Shown: positions 5,706 to 25,492, numbered from the stretch's first letter. The stretch: 32,000 bases of DNA from Desulfobulbus propionicus DSM 2032 (GCF_000186885.1 NC_014972.1:2280001-2312000), one strand, 5' to 3'. The notes: generated by a model from the sequence alone, not told the origin. Translations and numbers: made by a program.

Positions 5706-5777
5706 GGCCGCGCAGGGCCGGAAGGCGCGCTGCCCCTTCGCGGCGCAACGTGCCCGTGGCGGACGAAGGCGGTCTGG

Positions 5778-6773
5778 TTAGAGGTTGTGCACTTCAAGAT
5801 AGACCAGGGTCTGGTTGAGCAACTGGTAGGCAATCTCGCCAAAGGTGATGGGGCCGACAAAGGGATCGGTTCGGTATCCCTGCAACCCGGAGTAGAGATA
5901 GTTGAGAATGCAGTTGCAGGAAAAGACAATGGTGCGGCCGCCGGGGTTGAGCGTGCGCAGCTGCCTGTTGAAGGTGGCTTCATAGTCGGCGACCGCCCTG
6001 GCGTGCCTGTAGTGGATGCCGGCAAACACTGGCGCATAAAATTCGACCTTGCCGTCGGGCTCGACGTTTTGAAAGCTGGTATTGATCAAGGCGCCGTAAT
6101 AATCGGCCACCAACGGCAGTTTGGTGTCGAGTTCGTTGCGAAGGATATACTGAGCGAAATTTTCCCTGACCCCATTGACCAGTACATCGGTGCAGGAAAA
6201 GCCATCGTTGGGAAAGATAAAGGTGTCCCCTTCCCCCTGCTCAAAGATATTGAGGATACCCACGTCCACGGTTTTATCGGCAGGCAGGGTCACATGCATG
6301 ACCACCGCCTCCTGCGCATGGGCCGTGCCCGAGAGGCCGTTGAACACCTTGGGCGTTGCCGTGCCCATCTCAACGAGATGCACGCCCGCCACCCAGCCGA
6401 CCAACGGCCGGCTGCCAAAATCCTGGTAATGGGGGGCGTTGAGGGCAAACGACGCGTGCACGGAGCTGGCTGCCGGCAGAATAATGAAGCTGAAGTCGCG
6501 TCCTTCGTTTTGGGTATAGATCGTGCCGAGCCGGTGCCGGTCATACACTTCGATGGCCGCCGACGCTGCGACCGGGGTCAGGTCGGTGACGAACAGCTGC
6601 TCACGGGAAACGATCCCACCCTGATCCGAGGTGATGAAATAGGGGATCGTACCACCGATCCATCGCCCCTTGGGTAACTGGCGCATCAGCTGCTCCTCGC
6701 CGGCGAGCAGCAGGGTCCGTCCTGCGGTGATCAGCGGTTCGACCTCGGCGACAGTGAACATATTCTGATGCAT
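5778..6773 (-). CDS. uncharacterised protein, FIST-like sensory-domain architecture (tentative)
   Basis: 331 aa and soluble. The C-terminal block FVGPITFGEIAYQLLNQTLVYLEV resembles the FIST_C ending (GEI....hNqT). SD AGGAG lies 7 nt upstream. The upstream small ORF stops 8 nt before this start. Confidence 0.5.
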   Translation of the reverse strand: MHQNMFTVAEVEPLITAGRTLLLAGEEQLMRQLPKGRWIGGTIPYFITSDQGGIVSREQLFVTDLTPVAASAAIEVYDRHRLGTIYTQNEGRDFSFIILPAASSVHASFALNAPHYQDFGSRPLVGWVAGVHLVEMGTATPKVFNGLSGTAHAQEAVVMHVTLPADKTVDVGILNIFEQGEGDTFIFPNDGFSCTDVLVNGVRENFAQYILRNELDTKLPLVADYYGALINTSFQNVEPDGKVEFYAPVFAGIHYRHARAVADYEATFNRQLRTLNPGGRTIVFSCNCILNYLYSGLQGYRTDPFVGPITFGEIAYQLLNQTLVYLEVHNL

Positions 6774-7021: not shown

Positions 7022-7629
7022 CGTCGATGGCCTCCAGAGCACGATCCAAGGGACCCAGATTACTCCATCACGCTTCGCGGTCAGGCATAACACACCTTAT
7101 ATGGAACACGAATGTACATGGTATTGCCCCTTGGCACAAGATGAAGAAAAAAAGGATGTCACCGGTGACCCGAAACGCTATGAAGTACCTGCCAGATATG
7201 GCACTTTCTTGATAGGATGCAATTGCAGCAAAAGAAGAGTCAATATGCCCCGTACTCGATGAGAATATGGGTCAAAAGAACTCGAACTGATTTTCTTTCT
7301 TGGTTGGTTTTTGGTATCATTGCTTCTGACAGAGTTTTTTCCCTTTGTTATATATTGGGAAAAAAGAGTCATTTATACCCAACGGTTTCTGTTCGCCGTG
7401 CCGTCCGCCCCTCCGACAAAAGGTTATCGGCATGAAAAATGCATTGGATTCCGCAGGTTGCGAGGAACGATGTAAGAACCGTCCACGCTCCCACTGCTTT
7501 CCGGGGAAATCAGTGGTCCCTGAAACCCAAGCCAACCCACGCCCCGACAACAGCCGCCTCAGCAATGGGCTGGGATTCGCCTCACTTTTCAACATCATCG
7601 ATCGCGCGTATTCACGCGGAACTGGATTC

Positions 7630-8778
7630 ATGGATATCACCAAATTTGCCATCCCCGAAATCATCTTTGGCCGGGGAAGTCTCAACTATGCCGGACAATG
7701 TGCCTTGCGCCTCGGCGCCAAAAAAGTGTTCCTGGTCAGCGACGAAGGGATCGAGGAGGTCGGATGGCTGCAACGCCTGATGGACGTTCTGGAAAAGGAG
7801 GGCATCAAGTGGGTGTACTACCCCGGCGTGACCTCGAATCCGCGTGACTTTCAGGTGGAGCAGGGAGCGCAGCTCTATTCCAAGAACGGCACCGATGTGA
7901 TCATCGCCATTGGCGGCGGTAGCGCCATGGACACGGCCAAGGGCATTGCCATCATCGCCAGCAACGGCGGCCGGATACGGGATTACGAGGGCGCCAACCG
8001 GGTGCAGCGGCCGCTGCCGCCGATGATGCTGATCACCACCACGGCCGGCAGCGGCTCGGATATCAGCCAGTTCTGCATCATCACCGACATGAAGCGCGGG
8101 GTCAAAATGTCCATCATCACCCGGACTCTGGTGCCCAACATCTCCATTGTCGATCCGCTGATCCTGCGCACCAAGACCGAATCGCTGATCATCCAGTCGG
8201 CGGTCGATGCGCTGGCCCACGCCATCGAGGCCTACATGTCGCGCATTGCCTCGCCGTTCACCGAAATTCACTCGCTTCGGGCCATTGACCTGATCCTGGC
8301 CAACCTGCAACGCGCGGTGGCCACTCGTTCGCTCGATTCCCTGGAGCAGCTGAGCATTGCCTCGGTGTCCGCTTCCATGGCCTTTTCCAATGCCGGACTC
8401 GGCGCCGAACACGCCCTGGCCCACGCCCTGGGCGGCCATTTCGACATGCGCCACGGCATTGTCCATCCGATCCTGCTGACCAGTGTCATGCGCTTCAACA
8501 TGGGCATCAACCCCCAGCGCATGGCCGATATCGGCCGATTGATCCTCAAGCGCCAGGTCGGATCGGATGAGGATACCGCCTTGGCCGGCATTGAGAAACT
8601 CGAGGAATTTTTTGCCTCGTTCGACGTTGCCCTGCGGCTGAGCCAATTGATTCCGGAAAGTGAACGGCATCATCTTGAACCGCTGTGTAAGATGGCGGTC
8701 CATGATGCCTGCAACCTGACCAACCCCCGGCCTGCCACCTGGGAAGAATTTTACCGAATCTGCGAGGAGGTGTGGTGA
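7630..8778 (+). CDS. iron-containing (group III) alcohol dehydrogenase
   Basis: Fe-ADH blocks: IIFGRGSL, GGGSAMDTAKG, AVDALAHAIEAY, HALAHALGGHFDMRHG. The start at MDITKF (ATG 7630) fits family N-termini. The frame stays open upstream to 7345 (possible GTG at 7513, ATG at 7432), so the start is uncertain. Confidence 0.85.
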   Translation: MDITKFAIPEIIFGRGSLNYAGQCALRLGAKKVFLVSDEGIEEVGWLQRLMDVLEKEGIKWVYYPGVTSNPRDFQVEQGAQLYSKNGTDVIIAIGGGSAMDTAKGIAIIASNGGRIRDYEGANRVQRPLPPMMLITTTAGSGSDISQFCIITDMKRGVKMSIITRTLVPNISIVDPLILRTKTESLIIQSAVDALAHAIEAYMSRIASPFTEIHSLRAIDLILANLQRAVATRSLDSLEQLSIASVSASMAFSNAGLGAEHALAHALGGHFDMRHGIVHPILLTSVMRFNMGINPQRMADIGRLILKRQVGSDEDTALAGIEKLEEFFASFDVALRLSQLIPESERHHLEPLCKMAVHDACNLTNPRPATWEEFYRICEEVW

Positions 8779-10001: not shown

Positions 10002-11308
10002 TCGACGACGAAGAGTCGATCAGACGGCTGCTGCAGAAGGAATTGGCCAACAGCCGCCGCGAGATCCTGACCGCGGCCGATGGTGCCGAGGCCCTGGCCA
10101 TGATCCGCAACCACTGGTTTGACGTCATCATCATGGACCTATGGCTGCCCGATGTGTCCGATTTGGAGCTGTTGATCAAGATTCGGGAATCGATCCCCCA
10201 CATCGAGGTGATCATGATCACCGGTCACGGCGATGTCGATATCGCGGTGGAGGCGATGAAACTCGGGGCCTGCGATTTCATTCGCAAGCCGTTCAACCTC
10301 GACCGGCTCGATTTGATTGTGGAAAAGGCCCATCAGCGGGTTTTGCTGTCGCGGGAAAACGCTATGCTCCGCCACAGCACCGGCCAGGCACAGAATCAGG
10401 TGCGGTTCATCGGCAATTCCCAGGCCATCCGCGACATCCAGTTTCTGATCGACAAGGTCGCCCCGGCCAAGATTCCGGTACTGATCACCGGTGAATCGGG
10501 TGCCGGCAAGGATGTGGTCGCCCGGCTGATCCACCAGCGGTCCCCCTTGGCCGCCAATCCGATGATCGTCAAGAACTGCGCCACCCTGCAAAAGGAGCTG
10601 GCGCGCAGCGAGCTTTTCGGCCACATCAAGGGGTCGTTCACCGGAGCCAACGAATCGCGGGAGGGGTTGCTCTCCTTTGCCCACGACAGCACCCTGTTTC
10701 TCGATGAAATCGGCGAACTGCCGCTGGAAGTCCAGGCCTCGCTCCTGCGGGTCCTGGAAACCGGCACCTACCGCCGGGTGGGGGAAAAGGAGGAACGCAA
10801 AGTCAACATCCGTTTTCTGTTCGCCACCAACCGCCATCTGGCAGACGAGGTGGAAAAGGAACGGTTCAACGAGGCCTTCTACCACCGCATCAACGCCTTC
10901 AGCATCGAGATCCCCTCGCTCAGGCATCGCAAGGAAGATCTGCCGCTGCTGGTCGACTATTTCCTGACCACCCTCAGCCCGGACAACACCACCTACCATA
11001 TCGTTGAACGGGCCAAGGCCTGCATTCTGCGTTACAACTGGCCGGGGAACATCAGGGAACTGCGCAACGTGATCGAACGGTCGATCATTCTCGCGGAAAA
11101 TGGGATTATCACCGAACGCTGTCTGCCACGCGAACTGGTGGAATCTTCGGAAAGCAGCGGCGCCGCTCTGACCCTGGAGTCGGTGGAGCGGGAGCACATC
11201 CTCAAAATGCTCGATTTCTACGGCGGCAACCGGCAAAAAACCGCCGACACCCTGGGCATCAGTCGCAAAACGCTCTATCGCAAGCTGACCCAGTACGCCA
11301 TCGAGTAA
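9971..11308 (+). CDS. sigma-54-dependent response regulator (NtrC family: REC + AAA+ + Fis-type HTH)
   Basis: REC domain (ILVVDDEES, IIMDLWLPD). Walker A GESGAGKD. GAFTGA-type loop GSFTGA. Walker B FLDEIGEL. The C-terminal HTH matches QKTADTLGISRKTLYRKL. The start overlaps the kinase gene by 31 nt. Confidence 0.92.
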   Translation: MDKERYSILVVDDEESIRRLLQKELANSRREILTAADGAEALAMIRNHWFDVIIMDLWLPDVSDLELLIKIRESIPHIEVIMITGHGDVDIAVEAMKLGACDFIRKPFNLDRLDLIVEKAHQRVLLSRENAMLRHSTGQAQNQVRFIGNSQAIRDIQFLIDKVAPAKIPVLITGESGAGKDVVARLIHQRSPLAANPMIVKNCATLQKELARSELFGHIKGSFTGANESREGLLSFAHDSTLFLDEIGELPLEVQASLLRVLETGTYRRVGEKEERKVNIRFLFATNRHLADEVEKERFNEAFYHRINAFSIEIPSLRHRKEDLPLLVDYFLTTLSPDNTTYHIVERAKACILRYNWPGNIRELRNVIERSIILAENGIITERCLPRELVESSESSGAALTLESVEREHILKMLDFYGGNRQKTADTLGISRKTLYRKLTQYAIE

Positions 11309-13512: not shown

Positions 13513-14751
13513 TTAAGCGTAACGCCGAAAGATGACCACGCCGTTGGTACCGCCAAAGCCAAAAGAGTTGGACATGGCGGTTTCAAAGCGGGTTTCCCGT
13601 GCCGTCAATGGCACATAATCGAGATCGCAGTCCGGATCAGGATTGTGCAGGTTGGCGGTCGGGGGAATGATGCCATGGTGCAGGGCGAGGACGGTGAAAG
13701 CCGCCTCGATACCGCCCGCCGCCCCCAGCATGTGGCCGGTCATTGACTTGGTGGAACTGACCGCCAGTTGATGGGCATGGGCTCCAAAAACGGTTTTGAT
13801 GGCCAGGGTCTCGCACTTGTCGTTGAGCGGAGTGGAGGTCCCATGGGCGTTGATATAGTCGATGTCTTCGGGGTTCAGGCGGGCATCCCGCAGGGCAGCT
13901 GCCATGCACCGAGCCGCTCCCTCGCCATTTTCAGGCGGAGCGGCGATGTGATAGGCATCACTGCTCTGGCCATAGCCGATGATCTCGGCATAGATGGTCG
14001 CGCCCCGTCGTTTGGCGGCTTCCAGCTCCTCAAACACCATCATCCCCGCGCCTTCGGAGATGACAAAGCCATCGCGGTCCCGGTCAAAAGGCCGCGAAGC
14101 GGTGGTCGGATCGTCGTTGCGGGTCGACAGGGCCTTCATGGCACTGAATCCGCCAACGGCAAGGGGGCAGATGACCGATTCCGTCCCGCCGGTGATGGCC
14201 ACGTCGCAATCGCCATAGGCAATGTGACGGAAGGCCTCGCCGACCGCATGGGTGCCGGCGGCACAAGCGGTGGTTTGGGTCAGATTGGGCCCCTTGCAGC
14301 CGATGCGCATGGAAATATGCCCGGAAGGCATATTGGGAATGACCCTGGGAATAAAGAACGGAGTGATCTTGCGTGGCCCCTTGTTCATCATAACCCCGTG
14401 GTATTCCTCGATGGTGGGCAGACCGCCCATACCGCAGCCAGTAATCACCCCGACCCGATCGACATTTTCCTCGTTGATCGACAGGCCGCTGTTTTTCCAG
14501 GCAATGTCCGCAGCAGCCACCGCATATTGCACAAAGGCATCGAGATTTTTTGCCTGTTTTTTTTCAAACCACACCTCAGGATCAAAATCCTTGACCTCGG
14601 CGGCTATCTGCGAGGCCTGATCAGAGGCATCGAAGCGGGTGATCGGTCCGATCCCGCTCTGCCCGTTGATCAGCGCGTTCCACGTCTGCTCGGTACCGAT
14701 ACCGAGCGGCGTGATCAAGCCAATTCCTGTTACAACGACCCGTCGTTTCAC
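13513..14751 (-). CDS. fabF: 3-oxoacyl-ACP synthase II
   Basis: KAS II blocks: [15 protein letters not shown], active-site [30 protein letters not shown] chose the GTG start at 14751, preceded by GGAGCGGGAGAG. The track ORF runs to 14847 and would overlap acpP. Confidence 0.92.
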
Positions 14752-14767: not shown

Positions 14768-15001
14768 TCAGCCTTGAATCTTGGCCACGAAATCGATGGC
14801 ATTCTGCACGGTGACGATCTTCTCGGCCTCTTCGTCGGGGATTTCAACGTCGAATTCCTCTTCCATGGCCATGATCAGTTCGACCAGATCCAGGGAATCG
14901 GCTCCGAGGTCATCGACAAAGGATGCGCCCGGAACAACTTTGTCACGATCAACACTGAGTTGCTCGACGATGATATCAATCATTTTATCTTCAACGGCCA
15001 T
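14768..15001 (-). CDS. acpP: acyl carrier protein
   Basis: [19 protein letters not shown] carries the phosphopantetheine Ser (DSLD). ATG 15001 is preceded by GAGGAG. Confidence 0.95.
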
Positions 15002-15080: not shown

Positions 15081-15830
15081 TCAATGTCCCATATACATTC
15101 CGCCATTGACATGCAGGGTCTGACCAGTAATGTAGTTACTGTCAGGCGAGGCCAGAAAGCCCACCGAGGCGGCAACATCCTCCGGCGTTCCCAAGGTTCC
15201 CATGGGAATCTGGGCCTTGAGCGCTTCCTGAACATCTTCGGTGAGGCCATCGGTCATGTCGGTGACGATATATCCGGGAGCCACGCAATTGACGGTGATG
15301 TTCCGCCCCGCCAACTCCCTCGCCATGGATTTGGTCAGTCCCGCCAGGCCAGCCTTGGCCGCGCCGTAGTTGACCTGCCCGCTGTTGCCGACAAATCCGA
15401 CCACCGACGACACATTGATGATTCGTCCCCACCGTTTTTTCATCATGGCGCGCATCACTGCCTTACTGCAGAGAAACGCCCCTTTCAGATTGGTATCCAA
15501 CACGCTGTCCCAGTCGTCTTCCTTCATGCGTGCCATCAAGCCATCGCGGGTAATGCCCGCATTGTTGACCAGGATATCGATCTGGCCATGTGTCGCGATA
15601 ATTTCCTTGATTTGTTCCTGAACCGCTTGCGCATCGGCCACATCAAATCGGACGGTAAAGCCCTTGCCGCCCACGGCCTCGACCTGCCGGAGGGTTTCTT
15701 CGGCCGCCGCCGGATTCGCAACGTAATTGATGCCGACCGTGGCCCCCATGGCGGCGAGTTTCAGGCAAATGGCTCGACCGATCCCGCGGCTGCCGCCGGT
15801 CACGAGGGCAATCATCTTTTCCAGTATCAT
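15081..15830 (-). CDS. fabG: 3-oxoacyl-ACP reductase
   Basis: SDR motifs: TGGSRGIGRA, NNAGI, YGAAKAG. Typical FabG C-terminus GQTLHVNGGMYM. The start ATG overlaps the etfA stop (ATGA). Confidence 0.9.
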   Translation of the reverse strand: MILEKMIALVTGGSRGIGRAICLKLAAMGATVGINYVANPAAAEETLRQVEAVGGKGFTVRFDVADAQAVQEQIKEIIATHGQIDILVNNAGITRDGLMARMKEDDWDSVLDTNLKGAFLCSKAVMRAMMKKRWGRIINVSSVVGFVGNSGQVNYGAAKAGLAGLTKSMARELAGRNITVNCVAPGYIVTDMTDGLTEDVQEALKAQIPMGTLGTPEDVAASVGFLASPDSNYITGQTLHVNGGMYMGH

Positions 15831-17017
15831 TTCTTCATCTCCTGCAACCGCTGAATCAAACGCGGCACCACTTCATACAGATCACCGACCACCCCATAGG
15901 TGGCTATATCAAAAATGGGTGCACTCTTGTCTTTGTTGATCGCCACCACGATCTCTGCCGATTGCATGCCCACGGCGTGCTGCACAGCCCCGGAAATACC
16001 GCAGGCAATGTAGAGCTTGGGGCTGACCGTCTTACCAGTCTGCCCCACTTGATGGGGATAGGGGATCCAACCAGCATCCACCGCGGCCCTGGAAGCGGCG
16101 ACGGCGCCTCCCAGTTCGTTCGCCAGTTCACGGATCAGGGCAAAGCCCTTGGCCGAATCGAGTCCGCGTCCGCCAGCCACCAGCGCTTCGACCTCCTGAA
16201 TATTGACCTGATCATCGGTGTTGATCACTGTCTCGAGCACTTCAATCTTCGACTGGAGTAACCGCTCGGGAATTTGCATCACGACCACCTCCCCGCGACG
16301 CGTTGGGTCGGGCTCGGCAGGTGCCATCACCTTGGGCCGCACCGTGGCCATCTGTGGCCGAGTGTGGGGGCACTCAATGGTTGCCATGATATTGCCGCCA
16401 AAGGAGGGCCGGGTCTGCAGCAACATGCCGTCGGATTCCCTGATTTCCAGCCGAGTGCAATCGGCGGTGAGTCCCGCATCGATGGCGTTCGCCACATAGG
16501 GGATGACTGAACGGCCGATGGCGGTCGCTCCGGCGAGCACCACTTCGGGCTTTTGCTCCCGGATCACCTGCTCCAGAATACCGGCGTAAACATCTTCGCG
16601 AAACTGTTCCAACAGCGGATGTTCGGCAAGAAACACCCGGTCTGCGCCGGCAGCTATCAGATCCTGGGCCAGCGAGGCGACCGCGCCTCCGGGAAGCACG
16701 GCACTAAGCGTGGTTCCGCGCTGCTCGGCAAGTTTCCGGCCAATGCCGAGCAACTCATAGCTGACCTGCGCCACTTTGCCATGACGATATTCAGCAAACA
16801 CCAAAATGCCCGAATAGTCGTTGATGTCGGCCCGAACCCGCTTCTCCGCAGTTTCAATCCTCAATGCCCCGACCGGACAGTTTTCAACACAAGCCCCGCA
16901 CAGTGTGCAGGATTCATTGACCACGGCACAGTCGACCTCGACGCTGATCGCTCCAAAGGCGCAACTTGTTTCACAGATGCCGCAGGCAGTGCATTTCTCG
17001 CTATCGATAATCAGCAT
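15827..17017 (-). CDS. etfA: electron transfer flavoprotein alpha subunit with N-terminal 2x[4Fe-4S] ferredoxin domain
   Basis: The N-terminus has two CxxCxxCxxxC(P) motifs (CTACGICETSC, CTLCGACVENCP). The rest is EtfA-like: VAGGRGL, AVDAGW, QVGQTGKTVSPKLYIACGISGAVQH. I chose ATG 17017 because the track ORF to 17206 would overlap etfB. Confidence 0.88.
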   Translation of the reverse strand: MLIIDSEKCTACGICETSCAFGAISVEVDCAVVNESCTLCGACVENCPVGALRIETAEKRVRADINDYSGILVFAEYRHGKVAQVSYELLGIGRKLAEQRGTTLSAVLPGGAVASLAQDLIAAGADRVFLAEHPLLEQFREDVYAGILEQVIREQKPEVVLAGATAIGRSVIPYVANAIDAGLTADCTRLEIRESDGMLLQTRPSFGGNIMATIECPHTRPQMATVRPKVMAPAEPDPTRRGEVVVMQIPERLLQSKIEVLETVINTDDQVNIQEVEALVAGGRGLDSAKGFALIRELANELGGAVAASRAAVDAGWIPYPHQVGQTGKTVSPKLYIACGISGAVQHAVGMQSAEIVVAINKDKSAPIFDIATYGVVGDLYEVVPRLIQRLQEMKK

Positions 17018-17054
17018 GGGAACAATCCGGTTGAAATCACGGGGTGAAAGACGA

Positions 17055-17834
17055 TCACAGATGCGCCTTGAGGCACGCGACCAGTTGGTCGACCTGCTCT
17101 TCAACGCTTCCTGTAAAAATTTTGCGATTGCCCTTGGGCTCCGGCGCGAACACCCGGACCACCTGCGTCGGGGAACCGGCCAGACCGATGCACTGCGGGT
17201 CAGCACCGATATCTGAGGCGGAAAAGCACTTGATTGCCGCTTTTTTCGCTTTCATCTTCCCTTTCAGCGAAGCCACACGCGGCTGGTTGATATCCTTGAC
17301 CACGGTCATCAGGGCCGGCAGAGGCAGGCGGACGACATCAAACCCATCGTCCATCATCCGTTCCACTTCGATAACCCCATCGCCAACCGTACGCGTCTTC
17401 TGAATACAGGTAGCGTACGGCACCTGAAGTCGGTGGGCCAGTCCCGGCCCCACCTGGGCGGTATCGCCGTCGATCGCCTGCTTGCCGCAGAGAACGAGAT
17501 CAAAGGGGCCGATAGCCTCTATGGCCTTGGCCAAGGTGTAAGAGGTCGCCCACGTATCGGCCCCGGCAAAGGCACGGTCTGAAACCAGCACTCCTTCATC
17601 GGCTCCACAGGCGATGGCCTCACGCAACACCGCCTCGGCCTGCGGTGGCCCCATGGTCAAAACGGTTACGGCGCCTCCCAGCTGCTCCTTGATGGCCACC
17701 GCCTCTTCCAGGGCATGGCGATCATAAGGGTTCATGATCGACTCCACTCCCTCCCGGGCCAGGGTGTTGGTTTTCGGATCGAGACGAACGTCCTTGGCGT
17801 CCGGAACCTGTTTGACACAGACGATAATCTTCAT
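17055..17834 (-). CDS. etfB: electron transfer flavoprotein beta subunit
   Basis: MKIIVCVKQVPD, NPYDRHALEEA, CGKQAIDGDTAQVGP. Confidence 0.9.
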   Translation of the reverse strand: MKIIVCVKQVPDAKDVRLDPKTNTLAREGVESIMNPYDRHALEEAVAIKEQLGGAVTVLTMGPPQAEAVLREAIACGADEGVLVSDRAFAGADTWATSYTLAKAIEAIGPFDLVLCGKQAIDGDTAQVGPGLAHRLQVPYATCIQKTRTVGDGVIEVERMMDDGFDVVRLPLPALMTVVKDINQPRVASLKGKMKAKKAAIKCFSASDIGADPQCIGLAGSPTQVVRVFAPEPKGNRKIFTGSVEEQVDQLVACLKAHL

Positions 17835-17848
17835 GCGTTGTCCTGCTC

Positions 17849-18997
17849 TCAGGCGTATTCCTTGTTCAATTCCTGGCCAACGACATTGCGCTGAATCTGG
17901 TTGGTGCCTTCATAAATTTGAAGGATCTTGGCATCGCGCATCATCTTCTCCACCGGATACTCTTTCATGTAGCCGTATCCACCCAACACCTGAACCGCAT
18001 CGGTGGTGACTTTCATGGCCATATCGGTGGCAAAGACCTTGCACATGGACGAGACCTTGGACATATCCTTGGGATGCTTGTCGATGTGCTTTGCCGCCGC
18101 GTAAACCAACGATCGGGCTGCCTCCAGCTGGATGGCCATGTCGGCCAGGATGTGTTGCACGGCCTGAAAGGATATGATCGGTTTGGCGAACTGAACGCGT
18201 TGCTTGGCATAGGTGACCGCTTCATCAAGCGCTGCCTGGGCAAGGCCGACACCTAGGGAGGCGATCCCTGGCCGCGACATGTCCAGGGTCTTCATCACGG
18301 TGATGAACCCGGTTCCCCGCTTGCCTACCAGTCGATCCTTGGGAATACGGCAATCCTTGAGAATCAATTCCCGGGTGGCCGAGGCCCGGATGCCCATCTT
18401 GTCTTCCTTCTTGCCATAGGAAAATCCCGGATCCCCGTCCTCGACCACGAAAATGGAGGCTCCGCGCGCGCCCTTGTTGGGGTCGGTCAAGGCAACAATG
18501 GTGTAGATCTGTGATTCGCCGCCATTGGTGATCCATTGTTTGGTCCCGTTCAGCACCCACTCATCGCCATCCAAAACCGCGGTGGTGCGGATGCCGGAGG
18601 CATCACTGCCGGCATTGGCCTCGGTCAGACCAAAGGCGGCCCAGCGGGATCCGCTGGCGATATCGGGCATGTATTTCTGTTTCTGCTCTTCACTGCCGGC
18701 AATCAGCACCGGAAAGATGCCCAAAGCGCTGGCGGCAAAGCTGGTGGCCACACCAACGCATCCCCGGGCCAATTCTTCCAGGGCCAGGACAACCTCAAAA
18801 CAACCGCCGCCAAACCCGCCATATTCCTCGGGAACAAATATGCTGAACAGATCCGCCTTGGCGATATCCTTTAATATTTCGCGGGGAAACTGGTTTTTTT
18901 CATCAAGTTCGGCCCGAACCGGAATAATCTTTTCATTGGTGATTTCCCGGGCGGTATCAACGATCATCTGCTGCTGTTCAGTGAGAAAATAATCCAC
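17849..18997 (-). CDS. acyl-CoA dehydrogenase (short-chain/butyryl-CoA dehydrogenase-like)
   Basis: ACAD blocks: GLTEANAGSDASG, KQWITNGG, and the catalytic-base region ILQIYEGTNQIQR. GTG start at 18997 is preceded by AAGGAGAG and gives the family-typical N-terminus (V)DYFLTEQQQM. The track ORF to 19078 would overlap fabH. Confidence 0.88.
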   Translation of the reverse strand: MDYFLTEQQQMIVDTAREITNEKIIPVRAELDEKNQFPREILKDIAKADLFSIFVPEEYGGFGGGCFEVVLALEELARGCVGVATSFAASALGIFPVLIAGSEEQKQKYMPDIASGSRWAAFGLTEANAGSDASGIRTTAVLDGDEWVLNGTKQWITNGGESQIYTIVALTDPNKGARGASIFVVEDGDPGFSYGKKEDKMGIRASATRELILKDCRIPKDRLVGKRGTGFITVMKTLDMSRPGIASLGVGLAQAALDEAVTYAKQRVQFAKPIISFQAVQHILADMAIQLEAARSLVYAAAKHIDKHPKDMSKVSSMCKVFATDMAMKVTTDAVQVLGGYGYMKEYPVEKMMRDAKILQIYEGTNQIQRNVVGQELNKEYA

Positions 18998-19016: not shown

Positions 19017-19994
19017 TTACCAACGCATGAGCAGCGAACCCCAGGTGAGGCCGCCGCCAAAGGTACATAACAACACAATGTCTCCCCGCCTCAGCCGTCC
19101 TTCACGGTGCGCTTCGTCCAGCGCGATCGGGATGCTGGCGGCCGAGGTATTGCCGTACTTGCTTAAATTGATGAACACCTTCTCCTCCGCGATGCCCAAT
19201 CGGTCACGCAAATTGGTCAGGATGCGGATATTGGCCTGATGGGGAATCATGAGGTTGACGTCGTCGATGGTGAGGTCATGCTTACGCAACAGACTGGTAA
19301 CGGCATCCTCCATCATCCGAACAGCATGTTTGAAGATGTCGCTGCCGCTCATACGGATATGAGGCCCGTGCCATATGTCCGGCCGCAGATCCGGATTAAG
19401 GCTTTCCGGGCTGTCCATGCACAACAGGTTCCACAATTTGCCATCTGAATGCAAACTGCTGCCAAAAACTCCTCGACCGTCATGCGAGCCAGAAAGGACC
19501 ACCGCTCCCGCTCCGTCCCCAAAAAGAACACAGGTGTTGCGATCTTCCCAGTCCACCCGAGCGGACAGTGTTTCCGCACCGATCAGCAGGATTTTCATTT
19601 CCGGCCGATTCTGAATGTAATTGCTCGCCAGATCCAGACCATAGGTAAAACCGGCACAGGCGGCGTTGATGTCGTAGGCAAAGGCATTCACCGCCCCCAA
19701 TTCCGCCTGCACGAAACAGGCAGTGGACGGCATGATCATGTGCGGCGAAACGGTCGCGACAATAATCAGATCGAGCTCTTCGGCATCGATCCCGGTCACA
19801 GCGAGCGCCCGTCGTCCCGCCTTGGCGGCCAGCTGATAATTTTGTTCATTCTTTCCAGCAATATGCCGGTTTCGAATACCGGTCCTGGTCGTAATCCATT
19901 CATCGGAAGTATCCACCATCCGCTCAAGCTCGGCATTGGTGAGTTTCCGTTCGGGAAGACAGGAACCGGTTCCCAAGATAACTGCTCTATTCAT
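19017..19994 (-). CDS. fabH: 3-oxoacyl-ACP synthase III
   Basis: Catalytic-triad contexts NAACAGF, PHQANIRI and GNTSAASIP. I chose the start at MNRAVILGTG (ATG 19994). Confidence 0.92.
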   Translation of the reverse strand: MNRAVILGTGSCLPERKLTNAELERMVDTSDEWITTRTGIRNRHIAGKNEQNYQLAAKAGRRALAVTGIDAEELDLIIVATVSPHMIMPSTACFVQAELGAVNAFAYDINAACAGFTYGLDLASNYIQNRPEMKILLIGAETLSARVDWEDRNTCVLFGDGAGAVVLSGSHDGRGVFGSSLHSDGKLWNLLCMDSPESLNPDLRPDIWHGPHIRMSGSDIFKHAVRMMEDAVTSLLRKHDLTIDDVNLMIPHQANIRILTNLRDRLGIAEEKVFINLSKYGNTSAASIPIALDEAHREGRLRRGDIVLLCTFGGGLTWGSLLMRW

Positions 19995-20007: not shown

Positions 20008-21021
20008 TCAGGCGGCGAATTCGCCAAGGGCTTCAACGATCGCGTCGTTGATGCGATTGTGGACCATGCTGGCGGCGACTTCAATCGCATTGCGGATGGC
20101 CACGGCATTGGAGGCGCCGTGACAGATGATGCCGGTGCCGTCTATACCGAGCAGTGGCGCGCCGCCATATTCCGCGTAGTCCACCTGTTTTTTAAATCCA
20201 GCGAAAGCCTCGCGGATAAGGAGATACCCAAGTTTGGCACGCCAAGTTTTCATGATTTCCCGCTTCAGCATCTGCATGGCCGCCTCGGCCAGGCCCTCGC
20301 TGATCTTCAGCGAAATATTGCCGACGAACCCATCACATACCACCACATCGACATCGCCGCGATACACGTCGCGTCCCTCGACATTGCCGATGAAGTGCAA
20401 GGGGCTTTTTTTGAGCAATTCATGAGTTTCCTTGACCAGCGCATTCCCTTTTCCGGTTTCCTCGCCATTACTGAGCAACCCGACCCGTGGCCGTTCATGC
20501 TTGAGCAGCAACCGAGAGCAGGATGAGGCCATGACAGCAAATTGATACAAATGCTGCGGTCGACAGTCAACATTCGCACCGATGTCCATCAGCATCACCG
20601 GTTTTTTCAATGTCGGGAAGAAACTGGCAATGCCCGGCCTGGATACACCGGGAAGCCGCCCCAGCTTTCGTACGGCCGCCGCCATGGTCGCGCCGGAATT
20701 GCCGGCGGAAACAAGCGCGTCCGCCTCGCCGTTCTTTACCAGATCGAAACCGACCATAATGGTCGCCTCTTTCTTCTTGCGCACGGCATCAACCGGGGAA
20801 TCATCCATGGTGATCACCTCGGCGGCGTGATGGACACTGATTCGATCCAGTGCATCGCCTTGGCCGCGGGCATGTTCAGCGAGTTGTTGTTCCAAAAGAT
20901 GTTGGGGGCCAACCAAGACGACGCGGAGATCTTTCCTGCCGCCAACGGCGGCGAGTGCCCCTTGAATCGCCATCTCTGACCCCCGGTCGCCACCCATGGC
21001 GTCAAGGGCTATTCTCACCAC
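20008..21021 (-). CDS. plsX: phosphate acyltransferase PlsX
   Basis: MVRIALDAMGGD, SAGNSGA, VVCDGFVGN. Confidence 0.93.
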   Translation of the reverse strand: MVRIALDAMGGDRGSEMAIQGALAAVGGRKDLRVVLVGPQHLLEQQLAEHARGQGDALDRISVHHAAEVITMDDSPVDAVRKKKEATIMVGFDLVKNGEADALVSAGNSGATMAAAVRKLGRLPGVSRPGIASFFPTLKKPVMLMDIGANVDCRPQHLYQFAVMASSCSRLLLKHERPRVGLLSNGEETGKGNALVKETHELLKKSPLHFIGNVEGRDVYRGDVDVVVCDGFVGNISLKISEGLAEAAMQMLKREIMKTWRAKLGYLLIREAFAGFKKQVDYAEYGGAPLLGIDGTGIICHGASNAVAIRNAIEVAASMVHNRINDAIVEALGEFAA

Positions 21022-21029
21022 AGTGCCTA

Positions 21030-21218
21030 TTAGCTTATCTCTTCCTCAAGACGGATCACACTCCGCCCCTTGTACATGCCACAACCGCCGCATAACTGAT
21101 GACGCATCTTCGCTTCGCCACACTCGGGGCATTGCCCGACGCTGGGTTTAGTCAACGCATCGTGCGCCCGGCGCATTCTTGTTCGCGAATGGGAATGTCT
21201 ACGTTTCGGTAAAGCCAT
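21030..21218 (-). CDS. rpmF: 50S ribosomal protein L32
   Basis: MALPKRRHSHSRTRMRRAH plus the zinc ribbon CPECGE...CGGCG. ATG 21218 is preceded by GGAGGA. Confidence 0.93.
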   Translation of the reverse strand: MALPKRRHSHSRTRMRRAHDALTKPSVGQCPECGEAKMRHQLCGGCGMYKGRSVIRLEEEIS

Positions 21219-21299
21219 AATGTCCTCCATTGCGTCCACAAACATTGAACGGTGCCGAATCGCCCATTCTGTCGTCTTTGGACAACTTATTGATAAAAT

Positions 21300-21815
21300 T
21301 TATTTTTTCAACCGAGCAAGTCCCGCAAAAGGAGACCGATTATCCTCGGCGGCACAGCTGCAGTGCATCCCATTCAGGTTAGCGCCGCAACGCGGGCAAA
21401 GCCCCTTACAGGTTTCGGCGCAGAGATTTTTCATCGGGAGCGCCAGATATATCTGCTGTCGAAACACATCGTCAAGGTCAATGACAGGTTCTTCAAGCAC
21501 CTCGATGTCTAAATCTGTTGTTGTACATTCGACTTCCTTCAAACGCCACGAGGCTTCGCTCTCTACCTCGAACAGCAACTGGAAATCGGTATCCACCTGC
21601 ACATCGTAATCTCCAAGGCAGCGATCGCATACCAATGTCACCACGGCTTGAAGATACCCCTGCATGCCAACCTTTGCTTCGCCTTCGCGACGCAGTTCGC
21701 AATGGGCCTGCAGAGGTCCCTTGATGGCAAAATCCCGCTGCGCGACAAGACTTTCTATGACTGTCAACTCGAAACGACTGCCATACGGGGAGATTTCATT
21801 GAACCGGACCTGCAC
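21300..21815 (-). CDS. yceD: YceD/DUF177 family protein (large-subunit rRNA accumulation protein)
   Basis: Position upstream of rpmF. CDRCL...CxxxCKGLCPRCGANLN cysteine motifs typical of DUF177. Confidence 0.85.
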   Translation of the reverse strand: MQVRFNEISPYGSRFELTVIESLVAQRDFAIKGPLQAHCELRREGEAKVGMQGYLQAVVTLVCDRCLGDYDVQVDTDFQLLFEVESEASWRLKEVECTTTDLDIEVLEEPVIDLDDVFRQQIYLALPMKNLCAETCKGLCPRCGANLNGMHCSCAAEDNRSPFAGLARLKK

Positions 21816-21966
21816 CCTGCACCACCTTCAACCGCGCGAAAAAGTTGGTTTTCCGTCGAAACGGAAAAGTATACCTAAAAAAAAAATCTTCGCCAAGCAA
21901 AAAGAGAAGAATTTGAAAAAGAGAGGAGAATCAAGATGAAAGAAGCATTGATTCCTGCGGATGGAA

Positions 21967-22635
21967 TCAGGATTGCTTCTGCTGCTGTTCCAATTGGCTG
22001 ATTTTATTTTCTATCTGTTTAACCAAACCCGGATATCCGTCCTTGAGCAGGATCTCCTTGAACTGCTCCATGTAGTTGCGCACGAGGCTCACCCCTTCGA
22101 CAACCACATCGTAAGCCATCCATTGCGTCCCGCGAAGAATAAGAATATACGAGATGGGAATGGATTTATTCGCATCCACCAGCAACGTCTGCACCTCGGC
22201 GCGATCCCCCTTGATCCGCTGTTGAGTGAACTCGACCTGTTGCCCGGTATACTCGTCGATTTTTCCCACGTAGGCATACTGCAAAAGCTCGGTGAACAAC
22301 TGTTCAAATTGTGCCTGCTCCTGTGTATTGAGCGAACGCCAATGCTGCCCGAGAACCCGCTTGCTCATTTCGCGAAAATCAAAGCGTTCACGTACGACAT
22401 TGATCACTCTTTGACTCTGCTCTTTTTTCGGAACCGTTTTCAGGGTGGGGTCGGCGAGTACATCGGTGACTTTCTGCAGGAAGGGACGAAATTGCTCTGT
22501 AGGATCGGGAGAGCTCGCGGCCGCCGCTTGTCCGAGGAAGGAGCCGAAAATGATTACGACAAGAACAAGCAGGCCGCTGAAAAAAAATTGGGTACCCTGC
22601 CGACGGCATCGTCGATCCAATATCATGAACCACAT
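21967..22635 (-). CDS. mlaC: phospholipid-binding periplasmic protein MlaC (Ttg2D family)
   Basis: Signal peptide. FDFREMSKRVLGQHW, WMAYDVVVEGVSLVRNYMEQF. Confidence 0.85.
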   Translation of the reverse strand: MWFMILDRRCRRQGTQFFFSGLLVLVVIIFGSFLGQAAAASSPDPTEQFRPFLQKVTDVLADPTLKTVPKKEQSQRVINVVRERFDFREMSKRVLGQHWRSLNTQEQAQFEQLFTELLQYAYVGKIDEYTGQQVEFTQQRIKGDRAEVQTLLVDANKSIPISYILILRGTQWMAYDVVVEGVSLVRNYMEQFKEILLKDGYPGLVKQIENKISQLEQQQKQS

Positions 22636-22650
22636 AGCGATAAACTGTTT

Positions 22651-23418
22651 TTATTTTGTCTGAGAATGATTGCGCGTTTTACTTCGCATCTGGAAGTAGC
22701 CGTTGCGAAAAGCTATATAGGGATCAAAGCTCAAGGATTTCAACTGGTCATATTCCCCAAGATGCAGCGAGGTGCGATTCACCGTATTAACGCCGGTAAG
22801 CGTGTACGGGCTCAATTCGTCATCGCTCCACGGATAATAGGAAGCCATGGCCAAGCTGTCAACCACGGTTCCGGTCAAATCGCGCACCGTGGACGGTCCC
22901 AGCAAGGGTGCGACCACATAGAAACCGTCGCCGATGCCCCAGGTGGCGAGCGTTTCCCCGAGCGTGGCGCTGATGGGCGGAATGGCAAATTCATGGGCCG
23001 CGGTATCCGCCAAGCCAAAGACACCGCAGATGGTGTTGAGCGCGAACCGGGATAAGACCAGACCGGAATCGCGAAACCGTCCTTGCAGCAGGCAGTTGAC
23101 GGAGCGCACCGGTTCACCGAGGTTGTAAAAAAAATTGCCGATGCATCCCCGAATATCGGCAGGCAGTACCTTGCTGTATCCTGTGGCCACAGGGTCCAAC
23201 ACCCATATGTAGAACTTGTCGTTCAACGTGAAGATCGCCCTATTCACCGGCTCGATCGGATCGGCAACTTGGGCAGTTTCTCCATTTGCATAGGCGTCAT
23301 CGCTGAGGAAGTCATTGGCGGCCGCATTGCCGCCCCCAATGAGGAAAGACACGCACAGCATAAGACAGCAGCGCAACAGCAACGCGAAGATAGGTTTTGG
23401 TTGCATAACGGGACTCAC
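22651..23418 (-). CDS. mlaA: outer-membrane lipoprotein MlaA/VacJ
   Basis: VacJ blocks: DPIEPVNRAIFTLND, FFYNLGEPV, GLVLSRFALNT, GETLATWG. Start is ambiguous: GTG at 23418 or ATG at 23406. Confidence 0.85.
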   Translation of the reverse strand: MSPVMQPKPIFALLLRCCLMLCVSFLIGGGNAAANDFLSDDAYANGETAQVADPIEPVNRAIFTLNDKFYIWVLDPVATGYSKVLPADIRGCIGNFFYNLGEPVRSVNCLLQGRFRDSGLVLSRFALNTICGVFGLADTAAHEFAIPPISATLGETLATWGIGDGFYVVAPLLGPSTVRDLTGTVVDSLAMASYYPWSDDELSPYTLTGVNTVNRTSLHLGEYDQLKSLSFDPYIAFRNGYFQMRSKTRNHSQTK

Positions 23419-23419
23419 G

Positions 23420-23872
23420 TTATTTTTTCACCTCGCCAAAGGCAAATTTGGAAATGAGCGATTCCAAATCAACCGCCGATTCCGTGTCAACAATGGCTTC
23501 TCCGGGTTTGTAGGCGGTTTCATCGCCTCCCAGGGTAATCTGAATGTATTTATCCCCAATGATACCTTGCGATTTAACGGAGGCGATCGAGTCGACAGGG
23601 ACGACCACCTCGCGGTCGATCTGCATGGTCACAACGGCCTGACGATCTTCATTGAGATGCAATTGGCGCACCTTGCCCACCGTGACACCAGCAATCTGCA
23701 CATCTGCTCCCGGCTTGACCCCGGAAATGTTATTAAACTCGGCATGCAGGAGGTAGGTCTTGGCACCGGTCAACCAGGGGACCTCGCCAAGCTGCAACGC
23801 CAACCACCCCAGGGCCAGAAAACCGACCACCAGAAAAAAACCAACAAATAATTCCACACGCGCATTGGTCAT
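23420..23872 (-). CDS. mlaD: MCE-domain protein MlaD
   Basis: One N-terminal TM helix followed by an MCE domain (FNNISGVKPGADVQIAGVTVGKV). Confidence 0.85.
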   Translation of the reverse strand: MTNARVELFVGFFLVVGFLALGWLALQLGEVPWLTGAKTYLLHAEFNNISGVKPGADVQIAGVTVGKVRQLHLNEDRQAVVTMQIDREVVVPVDSIASVKSQGIIGDKYIQITLGGDETAYKPGEAIVDTESAVDLESLISKFAFGEVKK

Positions 23873-23891
23873 AGCCTTTTCCTTTCCTCAA

Positions 23892-24677
23892 TTATGCCGC
23901 CTGCTGTCCCATGACCGAGCGGGCAAACTCACGGATCTTTGGTTTGGTTGAAAGCGGGATCTGGGCGGGATCTGAAAAAATATCCAGCTCGCCTTTGTTC
24001 AGGAGGATGATCTGGTCGGCAAGGGTAAAAATCTGCGGGATATCATGGCTGACGATAACCGCCGTATATCCAAGACGTTGCTGGGTGCGAACAAACAGTT
24101 CGTAGATTTCCCTGGTCATAACCGGATCAAGACCGGTGGTCGGCTCGTCGAACAAGACGATTTCCGGCTCAAGCTGCAGGGCTCGGGCCAGGCCCACGCG
24201 TTTTTTCATCCCGCCGCTGAGCTGGGCAGGAAATTTTTCCTCATGCCCTGTCAATTCAAGCTGTTCAAGCGTCGCCGCGATACGGCTTCTTATCTCCTGA
24301 TCGCTCAACCGGGTACGCTCCCGCAACGGCAATGCGATGTTTTCAAAGACGGTCAGCGAATCGAACAAGGCTGCCCCTTGAAAAAGCACACCGAACCGCA
24401 TTCGCTGTTCCTGAAGGGCTTTGTAGCCCATGGTGGTGATATCTTTTTCGCCGATCAAGACCTGACCAGAATCAGGACGCAGCAGGCCGAGAATTAGCTT
24501 GAGAATCACGCTTTTCCCCTGACCGCTGCCCCCGGCAATGACCGTGGTCTTGCCCTTGGGCACGGAAAAGCTGACCCGGTCAAGCACCAGATGGCGCCTG
24601 GACCGCTCGCCAAAGGATTTACAGACATCGACAAATTGGATGGCTGTTTCATTGGCCGGGGCGATTGCTGTACTCAT
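23892..24677 (-). CDS. mlaF: ABC transporter ATP-binding protein MlaF
   Basis: Walker A GGSGQGKS, signature LSGGMKKR, Walker B IVLFDEPT. It overlaps mlaE by 4 nt. Confidence 0.9.
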   Translation of the reverse strand: MSTAIAPANETAIQFVDVCKSFGERSRRHLVLDRVSFSVPKGKTTVIAGGSGQGKSVILKLILGLLRPDSGQVLIGEKDITTMGYKALQEQRMRFGVLFQGAALFDSLTVFENIALPLRERTRLSDQEIRSRIAATLEQLELTGHEEKFPAQLSGGMKKRVGLARALQLEPEIVLFDEPTTGLDPVMTREIYELFVRTQQRLGYTAVIVSHDIPQIFTLADQIILLNKGELDIFSDPAQIPLSTKPKIREFARSVMGQQAA

Positions 24678-25492
24678 AGCAACACCGCGGTGAGCAGATA
24701 GTCAAAGATCAAGACCGAAATCGACGACATGACCACTGCTTGAGTGGTGACTTTGCTGACGCTCTCCGCACCAAAACCGGCCCCGCGAATTGTCTGGACA
24801 AAATAACCGCGACCGGTGCAGATCCATGCCACCAGCAAGGCGAAGACAAAGGATTTAATTACCCCCAGGCGCACATCGTGGTTGGTGACGCTTTGCTCCA
24901 TGCCGGAAAAAAAGGCGCCACTGTTCACGCCCATAAGCTTCACCCCGGCCAAATATCCACCGGTGATGCCGATCACATCGAAAAACGCGGTCAACAGGGG
25001 AACCGAGATCAAGGTTGCAAGAAGTTTGGGGGATATGAAATAACGAAAAGGGTCGATGGCCATGCATTCCAAGGCATCGATCTGTTCGGAAATCCGCATG
25101 ATACCGATTTCTGCGCACATCGCCGATCCGGCTCGCCCAGCCACCATCAGGGCGGTAAGCACCGGCCCGAGCTCCATGATCAGGCTGAGGGAGACCGCGG
25201 AACCCAGCATCCCTTCGGCACCAAATTTATGCAGGGAGTAGTACCCTTGCAGCCCCAGAACCATGCCGGTGGAAAGCGCGGTGAAAAAAATCACCGTCAA
25301 CGACCCTGCGCCGATAAATCCGACCTGCTTGATCAATTCACGGAAACGAAAGGGACGTTTGAGAAGGCCCAGCAGGGAAAAAAATAAAAAAATCCCCATC
25401 CTGCCGAGATCGGTCAGGGTGTAGATCGCTTGATCGCCCATTCTGCCGATCAGGCGCAGTAAGGGAAGGGAACTTTTTTCTGTTTCAGTCAT
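24674..25492 (-). CDS. mlaE: ABC transporter permease MlaE
   Basis: Multi-TM protein with MlaE-type blocks: GAGSLTVIF, ELGPVLTALMVAGRAGSAM, EIGIMRISEQIDALE. No obvious SD at 25492, so the start is uncertain. Confidence 0.85.
   Translation of the reverse strand: MTETEKSSLPLLRLIGRMGDQAIYTLTDLGRMGIFLFFSLLGLLKRPFRFRELIKQVGFIGAGSLTVIFFTALSTGMVLGLQGYYSLHKFGAEGMLGSAVSLSLIMELGPVLTALMVAGRAGSAMCAEIGIMRISEQIDALECMAIDPFRYFISPKLLATLISVPLLTAFFDVIGITGGYLAGVKLMGVNSGAFFSGMEQSVTNHDVRLGVIKSFVFALLVAWICTGRGYFVQTIRGAGFGAESVSKVTTQAVVMSSISVLIFDYLLTAVLL

Follow-up and report, generated by a model that had tools for sequence, protein, structure and literature searches.

Enoyl reduction is the step that pulls each elongation cycle of bacterial fatty-acid synthesis, and drugs such as triclosan, isoniazid and FabK inhibitors act on it. 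The reduction of enoyl-acyl carrier protein (enoyl-ACP) is carried out by four known enzyme families. Enzymes of the acyl-CoA dehydrogenase (ACAD) family interconvert acyl and trans-2-enoyl thioesters, and in Bcd-EtfAB and CarCDE such an enzyme forms a complex with an electron-transfer flavoprotein (Etf) of the bifurcating type. To our knowledge, all the characterised complexes with this Etf type run physiologically toward the reduction of an enoyl thioester with NADH, the second electron passing to ferredoxin. Here we analyzed a stretch of 32,000 nucleotides from Desulfobulbus propionicus DSM 2032 (NC_014972.1:2280001-2312000; hereafter, the window), in which the genes of an ACAD and of both subunits of an Etf (hereafter, the module) lie inside the operon for type II fatty-acid synthesis (FAS-II). 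Because an ACAD acts on the acyl/enoyl couple, its place within FAS-II would be the enoyl-ACP reductase step or the reverse of that step. The linkage of the ACAD, in most carriers together with its Etf, to FAS-II is solid across several phyla, and it points to a step of enoyl reduction in lipid synthesis that has not been described and may conserve energy. What is new is a complex of the CarCDE/Bcd-EtfAB type apparently recruited to FAS-II, for whose function we put forward a well-motivated hypothesis. Our searches of open-access full texts (subscription-only papers were outside the scope) turned up no account of fab operons that contain an ACAD/Etf, no enoyl-ACP reductase that bifurcates electrons, and no ACAD-type enzyme that dehydrogenates acyl-ACP in housekeeping fatty-acid or unsaturated fatty-acid synthesis.

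Position of the module in the fab operon

The map of open reading frames (ORFs), the sequence itself and the matches to Pfam and NCBIfam agree on the order yceD-rpmF-plsX-fabH-ACAD-etfB-etfA-fabG-acpP-fabF on the minus strand, with a ferredoxin domain fused to etfA, followed by rpiB, nrdR and ribD. This is the order that the initial annotation of this DNA had given. The cluster spans about 13.5 to 21.9 kb of the window. Gene boundaries were taken from the sequence and from independent gene calling in four further assemblies of this organism, which gave identical gene lengths. The features, in window coordinates, are as follows.

21868-21896, minus strand: promoter-like site upstream of yceD (consensus scan, 9/12 matches); possible operon start, weak evidence
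21300-21815, minus strand: yceD (Pfam YceD, E 3.8e-28)
21030-21245 (ORF as listed), minus strand: rpmF; translation probably starts at the Met at about 21218; conserved in related loci by tblastn
20008-21021, minus strand: plsX (Pfam FA_synthesis, E 1.6e-108)
19017-19994, minus strand: fabH (NCBIfam beta-ketoacyl-ACP synthase III, 426 bits against a cut-off of 249; gene call of 325 aa)
17849-18997, minus strand: ACAD, an acyl-thioester dehydrogenase/reductase of the fab-linked orthogroup (382 aa; GTG start after AAGGAG; three Pfam ACAD domains)
17055-17834, minus strand: etfB, small Etf subunit of predicted bifurcating type (259 aa; Pfam ETF)
15827-17017, minus strand: etfA, large Etf subunit with an N-terminal 2x[4Fe-4S] ferredoxin domain (396 aa; Pfam Fer4 twice, ETF and ETF_alpha)
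15081-15830, minus strand: fabG (NCBIfam FabG equivalog, 344 bits against a cut-off of 332)
14768-15001, minus strand: acpP (Pfam PP-binding; gene call of 77 aa)
13513-14751, minus strand: fabF (NCBIfam fabF equivalog, 659 bits against a cut-off of 494)

The spacers between fabH and the ACAD gene, between the ACAD gene and etfB, and between etfB and etfA measure 19, 14 and 37 nt, and the ATG of fabG overlaps the TGA of etfA (ATGA); the initial annotation had reported all four values, and they match the sequence. A consensus scan of the window placed no promoter-like or terminator-like site at the four junctions of the module, in line with the earlier remark that the spacers hold no hairpin or U-tract. 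As far as can be read from the DNA, the spacers, the overlap and the junctions free of such motifs thus support the proposal that the module belongs to the transcription and translation unit of the fab genes. Note that the numbers of promoter-like and terminator-like sites in the window equalled the shuffled expectation; the site upstream of yceD, which is the sole minus-strand promoter-like site outside coding sequence upstream of the cluster, is therefore weak evidence for an operon start. Pfam searches of all large ORFs and tblastn found no fabD, fabI, fabK, fabV, fabZ or fabA within the 32-kb window, as had been claimed for the first four of these genes.

Linkage to FAS-II across relatives

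To see how far this arrangement extends, the ACAD was used as a query against one genome per species, which gave 80 loci, and a profile of 14 members from outside Desulfobulbia was used in a second, independent scan of metagenome contigs, which gave another 80 loci (loci are cited below by L numbers). These were mapped by tblastn with the window proteins and with FabD, FabI, FabZ and FabA of Escherichia coli, FabK of Streptococcus pneumoniae and FabV of Vibrio cholerae (the last six being reference sequences entered by hand). When at least two FAS-II genes lay beside the ACAD gene, the locus was counted as fab-linked. This was the case for 88 of the 160 loci (46/80 in genomes, 42/80 in metagenomes) and, when the count was restricted to loci flanked by at least 5 kb on each side, for 44 of 62 (25/39 and 19/23, respectively). 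If genes were placed at random, well under 1% of genomes would have a given gene within 8 kb of this single operon.

All 20 Desulfobulbia loci (L001-L020) have the order of the window, as far as each contig extends, and so do the more distant L021 and L022. The linkage was also found in other Thermodesulfobacteriota, in Nitrospirota, in Margulisiibacteriota and in many unassigned metagenome contigs, so that a sporadic, strain-specific insertion, which the initial annotation had named as an argument against its interpretation, is clearly ruled out. In other Thermodesulfobacteriota, Desulfobacca included, the module or a lone ACAD gene lies between rpmF/plsX/fabH and fabG, and in Nitrospirota/Thermodesulfovibrionia and one metagenome-assembled genome (MAG) of Margulisiibacteriota the order is fabH-ACAD-etfB-etfA-fabD-fabG-acpP-fabF. 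In total, at least five gene orders occur in several phyla, in which the module stands between fabH and fabD/fabG, after fabF-rnc at the end of the operon, or before yceD, or in which the ACAD gene alone is inside the operon, between plsX/fabH and fabD/fabG. The persistence of the linkage through such rearrangement argues for function rather than inherited synteny. The overlap of etfA with the next gene is likewise shared: an overlap of 4 nt or 1 nt, with fabG or fabD, is present in most Desulfobulbia loci, and it is found as etfA-fabD in single loci of Nitrospirota and Margulisiibacteriota.

These orders also bear on the missing fabD. The initial annotation had placed the module in the 'fabD slot'; however, wherever an operon with the module holds fabD (Nitrospirota, Margulisiibacteriota), this gene directly follows etfA, and replacement of fabD by the module is ruled out. 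The module was therefore inserted between fabH and fabD, and Desulfobulbia lost fabD from the operon independently, by relocation; a Desulfobulbaceae MAG (L020) has a FabD-like gene 2.3 kb upstream of rpmF. Thus, of the initial interpretation, the integration into the operon and the conserved linkage stand, and the fabD replacement does not.

Several ORFs near the module were considered as possible partners and rejected. Those that split the module (L004:12039-13182, L047:12017-12457, L044:11258-12602 and L024:11165-14126), examined as candidate FabZ-like or other partners, are selfish or unrelated genes (PIN toxin, DUF559 endonuclease, RNase H, SEC-C or coiled-coil proteins), and the module stays in the fab operon. 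An ORF of 251-282 aa between fabF and the ACAD gene (L062, L066, L067 and L076), considered as FabI or crotonase, is RNase III. Three further arrangements were observed. In L103:4247-11939 the order is rpmF-plsX-fabG-ACAD-acpP-fabF-rnc-etfB-etfA, with the ACAD gene between fabG and acpP and the Etf genes detached behind rnc. In L076:3096-3947 a gene of the lipoate/octanoyl protein ligase family (LplA/LipB), a family that uses octanoyl-ACP, lies 3' of the ACAD gene, which itself follows fabF-rnc. In L100:11179-14510 (and similarly in L113), genes for a radical SAM/SPASM protein, an SDR protein 28% identical to FabG and a GHMP kinase lie downstream of the fab operon and the ACAD gene.

The candidate reaction and its alternatives

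The N-terminal, middle and C-terminal domains of the ACAD (PF02771, PF02770 and PF00441) all score above the Pfam cut-offs, and the catalytic base is intact: the Glu of IYEGT/YEGT, at the position of Glu376 of medium-chain acyl-CoA dehydrogenase (MCAD), is present, and its column is invariant in an orthogroup of 81 members and likewise in alignment A1. Within this orthogroup the pairwise identity is at least 57%, compared with about 43-54% to clostridial Bcd and about 42-46% to human MCAD, and both references fall outside it in a neighbour-joining tree (the reference sequences were entered by hand). The fab-linked ACAD is thus, by its sequence, a separate, highly conserved orthogroup outside classical Bcd. 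The window protein itself is 43% identical to Bcd of Clostridium acetobutylicum and 42.5% to human MCAD (both again reference sequences entered by hand), and with this identity and the position of Bcd in the tree it does not count as an ortholog of clostridial Bcd. The label 'Bcd/SCAD-type' of the initial annotation is right in a loose sense and too specific, as the protein passes no NCBIfam equivalog cut-off and is about as distant from Bcd as from MCAD. Between Desulfobulbus and a Nitrospirota locus (L040), the ACAD is the best-conserved protein of the operon (66% identity), followed by FabF (65%) and AcpP (63%); FabG, EtfB, EtfA, FabH and PlsX have 48-57%. Lys residues at positions 303, 310 and 314 of the ACAD (about 18056-18091, minus strand) are 95-100% conserved within the orthogroup. 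Neither the Bcd nor the 8I4P reference has them, and MCAD has Arg at just one of these positions. They may make up a surface on which ACP or Etf docks, and they are not used here as evidence for ACP binding.

Public names for the protein differ (acyl-CoA dehydrogenase at NCBI, butyryl-CoA dehydrogenase at JGI, and 'Cyclohex-1-ene-1-ca...' for a close homologue in UniRef), and two of the alternatives to a direct role in FAS-II follow such names. The first is an acryloyl-CoA reductase (AcrABC-like) or a cyclohexane/cyclohexene-carboxyl-CoA dehydrogenase of propionate or aromatic metabolism that merely adjoins the fab genes. The best NCBIfam matches of the three proteins are indeed the models of AcrC, AcrB and AcrA from Clostridium propionicum, followed by cyclohexane-1-carbonyl-CoA dehydrogenase, and the organism is a propionate former. 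However, the scores are far below the cut-offs (440 against 640, 240 against 475 and 346 against 600 bits for the AcrABC subunits, with 440 being that of the ACAD to AcrC, and 390 against 650 for the cyclohexane model), the same module is found in fab operons of unrelated phyla without such metabolism, and Desulfobulbus presumably makes propionate through methylmalonyl-CoA. We regard this explanation as very improbable.

The second is a CoA-specific short- or medium-chain enoyl-CoA reductase or acyl-CoA dehydrogenase, co-expressed with the fab genes, whose role in lipid synthesis would be indirect (supply of acyl-CoA primers for FabH, or recycling of acyl chains). Besides the public annotations, it has in its favor that every solved structure close to the ACAD in a comparison with the Protein Data Bank (PDB) is an acyl-CoA enzyme, that the residues aligned with Asp253 and Arg256 of MCAD are kept along with a basic residue at the position of Arg324, and that in many loci the ACAD gene directly follows fabH, which encodes the only CoA-using enzyme of the cycle. 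On the other hand, the linkage persists where the operon has no fabH and where the module follows fabF-rnc, the orthogroup is separate from classical Bcd, and ACADs acting on carrier-protein thioesters exist (MbtN and the prolyl-PCP dehydrogenases, which are in the NCBIfam match list). Moreover, no gene for thiolase, 3-hydroxyacyl-CoA dehydrogenase (such as 3-hydroxybutyryl-CoA dehydrogenase, Hbd) or crotonase, which could supply an enoyl-CoA, was found in the window, in the sampled and annotated flanks of related loci, or among the annotated ORFs around ten unlinked members. Unlinked ACAD genes instead adjoin housekeeping genes (tRNA synthetase, SpoIIR, pseudouridine synthase, EF-Tu, PPIase and TldD). 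Taken together, a CoA-specific enzyme seems rather unlikely to us.

The best solved match of EtfA is CarE (6FAH_A, E 9e-128, residues 5-394), and those of EtfB are CarD (6FAH_B, E 1e-76) and then 4KPU_B, 5OL2_B, 7QH2_B and 7KOE_A; non-bifurcating ETF-beta reaches only 1e-30. In bit scores, EtfB has 221-261 bits to CarD and to the Acidaminococcus, Clostridioides difficile, LctB and Thermotoga Etf and no more than 109 bits to ETF of human or Paracoccus, and EtfA has 276-430 bits to five solved bifurcating Etfs and at most 170 bits to non-bifurcating ETF. EtfB has the segment KQAIDGDTAQVG in common with CarD and with EtfB of Acidaminococcus. At its N-terminus EtfA has two CxxCxxCxxxC motifs (CTACGICETSC and CTLCGACVENC), the alignment with CarE begins at residue 5, and the two-cluster ferredoxin domain is kept in 44 of 47 full-length partner EtfAs. 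Judged by these similarities, the Etf is of the bifurcating (group 2) type, closest to CarDE, rather than an AMP-containing respiratory ETF, and the homology of its subunits makes the module a complex of the CarCDE/Bcd-EtfAB type.

The explanation we prefer, and hold tentatively, is that the module is a Bcd/CarCDE-like enoyl-ACP reductase (ENR) that uses NADH and co-reduces ferredoxin and was recruited into FAS-II. NADH would reduce the bifurcating FAD of EtfB. One electron would run downhill through the FAD of EtfA and the FAD of the ACAD to the trans-2-enoyl thioester made by FabZ, giving the saturated acyl thioester; the substrate would most likely be carried on ACP, which would make the complex an ENR. 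The other electron would be driven uphill to ferredoxin by way of the ferredoxin domain of EtfA with its two [4Fe-4S] clusters, so that in every elongation cycle some of the large free energy released by enoyl reduction would be saved in the form of reduced ferredoxin. The reductive direction is favored because the module has a bifurcating-type Etf with a ferredoxin domain and the studied complexes of this type work reductively, and the position in the operon together with the translational coupling to fabG/fabD points to a core, stoichiometric enzyme, which may be a main enoyl reductase of these organisms. With somewhat more reserve, we propose that in many strict anaerobes, among them Desulfobulbia, Thermodesulfovibrionia and Margulisiibacteriota, the module constitutes a fifth ENR class, which works by flavin-based electron bifurcation.

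The same couple could be run backwards. The enzyme would then be an acyl-ACP dehydrogenase for anaerobic synthesis of unsaturated fatty acids, which oxidises medium-chain acyl-ACP to trans-2-enoyl-ACP and perhaps leads on to the cis-3 isomer, with a confurcating Etf in which reduced ferredoxin pushes the electrons onto NAD+. This chemistry is native to ACADs with an intact catalytic Glu, the tight linkage to FAS-II would apply equally, and a confurcating Etf would be one of the few cytoplasmic routes by which a strict anaerobe could oxidise an acyl thioester. By its lipid biomarkers, Desulfobulbus is rich in monounsaturated fatty acids. A flavoenzyme precedent for running fatty-acid synthesis backwards is FabX (PMC8626469). 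Against this explanation, no isomerase or FabA/FabM-like gene accompanies the module at any of the 160 loci, its placement and translational coupling with fabG/fabD fit a stoichiometric core enzyme and not a branch-point enzyme, and the known complexes with this Etf type work in the reductive direction. In addition, three module-bearing operons already have a FabX-like protein near the module, as described below. We consider the dehydrogenase distinctly doubtful.

The FabX-like proteins are encoded by a gene of the NMO family between acpP and fabF (L049:15197-16171, L085:15051-16013 and L099:15183-16169). The protein of L049 was at first taken as FabK, an apparent counter-argument to an ENR role of the module; this was dropped, since it has 180 bits against the FabK cut-off of 453 and is FabX-like. 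The best solved match of all three proteins is Helicobacter pylori FabX (7E1Q, E 9e-41), and they have a conserved CxxCxxxCxxxxC aligned with the [4Fe-4S] ligands of FabX, C300, C304, C308 and C320 (PMC8626469). These similarities suggest that FabX-type synthesis of unsaturated fatty acids exists outside Campylobacterota. If the FabX-like protein does the job of FabX (backtracking dehydrogenation/isomerisation), the reductase job in these three operons would be left to the ACAD-Etf module. For this reason, and because the Etf is of the bifurcating type, the Etf-based, ferredoxin-coupled enoyl reductase is favored among the three readings that the initial annotation had offered. Consistent with it, no canonical FabI, FabK or FabV was found by tblastn in the operon at any of the 88 fab-linked loci.

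Several points weigh against the ENR assignment. Most bacteria own one of FabI, FabK, FabL and FabV, fabI often lies away from the fab operon, and a carrier genome may encode such an enzyme outside the loci surveyed. ACP rather than CoA as the carrier is drawn from the genomic linkage to FAS-II. A reductase for C4 to C18 needs a deep pocket, and at the positions of Gln95/Glu99 of MCAD and other lining positions the ACAD has small residues (Ala/Gly/Ser), as does the Bcd reference. In a Nitrospirota subclade the ACAD gene is unlinked to fab genes, and some fab operons have the ACAD gene without Etf genes. Finally, in a Spirochaetales MAG (L078:9998-12220) the ACAD gene is followed after 18 nt by the gene for an NMO-family protein that resembles FabK but has no Fe-S motif (256 bits, with the cut-off at 453); the pair lies outside any fab operon with no Etf genes nearby and would represent two reductases side by side.

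The rest of the window was also surveyed. A complete Mla phospholipid-transport cluster (mlaE, mlaF, mlaD, mlaA and mlaC; 21967-25492, minus strand) lies directly upstream of yceD on the same strand, and thus genes for lipid transport and lipid synthesis are contiguous. Three long ORFs without a Pfam match (21961-23055, plus strand; 10139-11236, minus strand; 7612-8703, minus strand) are antisense to well-supported genes (mlaC/mlaA and those for a sigma-54 response regulator and an iron-containing alcohol dehydrogenase, Fe-ADH) and are most likely spurious ORFs of GC-rich DNA. At 4764-6773 (minus strand), neighbouring DUF1848 and DUF6976 genes adjoin a malic enzyme gene. The window has no Rfam matches and no tRNA genes.

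Significance and comparison with known systems

If the module is a bifurcating ENR, a mechanistically different family would be added to the known ENRs, and each FAS-II cycle would oxidise 2 NADH and yield reduced ferredoxin, so that membrane-lipid synthesis would be partly energy-conserving. Strict anaerobes would then recover energy from an anabolic pathway, and the short list of electron-bifurcating enzymes would gain a housekeeping process. The carriers would also be independent of enzymes of the FabI/FabK type and insensitive to their inhibitors. If the enzyme is an acyl-ACP dehydrogenase instead, it would be relevant to unsaturated fatty-acid synthesis in many anaerobes, whose route is still an open question. 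In either case, a protein that thousands of genomes and metagenomes list as 'butyryl-CoA dehydrogenase' would need a new name, and metabolic reconstructions that take a fab-linked ACAD as capacity for butyrate formation or beta-oxidation would be wrong.

The known ENRs, FabI, FabL and FabV (SDR) and FabK (FMN, NMO family), have the role in the elongation cycle that is proposed here for the module, and their genes also lie in fab operons in several bacterial groups. They differ from the module in their unrelated fold and cofactors, and they transfer hydride straight from NAD(P)H with no energy conserved. H. pylori FabX, a decanoyl-ACP dehydrogenase/isomerase, is similar as a flavoenzyme that acts on the acyl-ACP/enoyl-ACP couple in FAS-II with an Fe-S relay (PMC8626469). 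It differs in its NMO/TIM-barrel fold and its oxidative direction, and in L049, L085 and L099 the FabX-like genes co-occur with the module and do not replace it. The acyl-ACP dehydrogenase MbtN and the prolyl-PCP dehydrogenases RedW and PigA, which are among the NCBIfam and PDB (4IRN) matches, show the ACAD fold acting on phosphopantetheinyl-protein substrates, although they are distant (72-254 bits against cut-offs of 500-700), belong to secondary metabolism, work oxidatively and have no bifurcating Etf partner.

Closer to the module is Bcd-EtfAB of Clostridia and Acidaminococcus (5OL2, 4L1F/4KPU), which combines an ACAD with a bifurcating Etf, matches strongly in sequence and performs the chemistry proposed here, with NADH, oxidised ferredoxin and an enoyl thioester. 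Unlike in Bcd-EtfAB, the ACAD of the module is outside the classical Bcd group (43-54% identity, compared with at least 57% within its own group), its EtfA bears an extra ferredoxin domain, and its neighbours are FAS-II genes in place of crt, hbd and thl of the butyrate pathway. CarCDE of Acetobacterium woodii (6FAH) differs in that CarC is a middling match to the ACAD (319 bits, rank 22) and in that it belongs to a caffeate-respiration operon with a phenylpropenoyl-CoA substrate, whereas the module is inside FAS-II operons. Nevertheless, in CarCDE as in the module the ACAD gene comes first and the genes of the small and then the large Etf subunit follow, the large subunit bears the same N-terminal 2x[4Fe-4S] ferredoxin domain, and CarE and CarD are the best solved matches of the EtfA and EtfB of the module.

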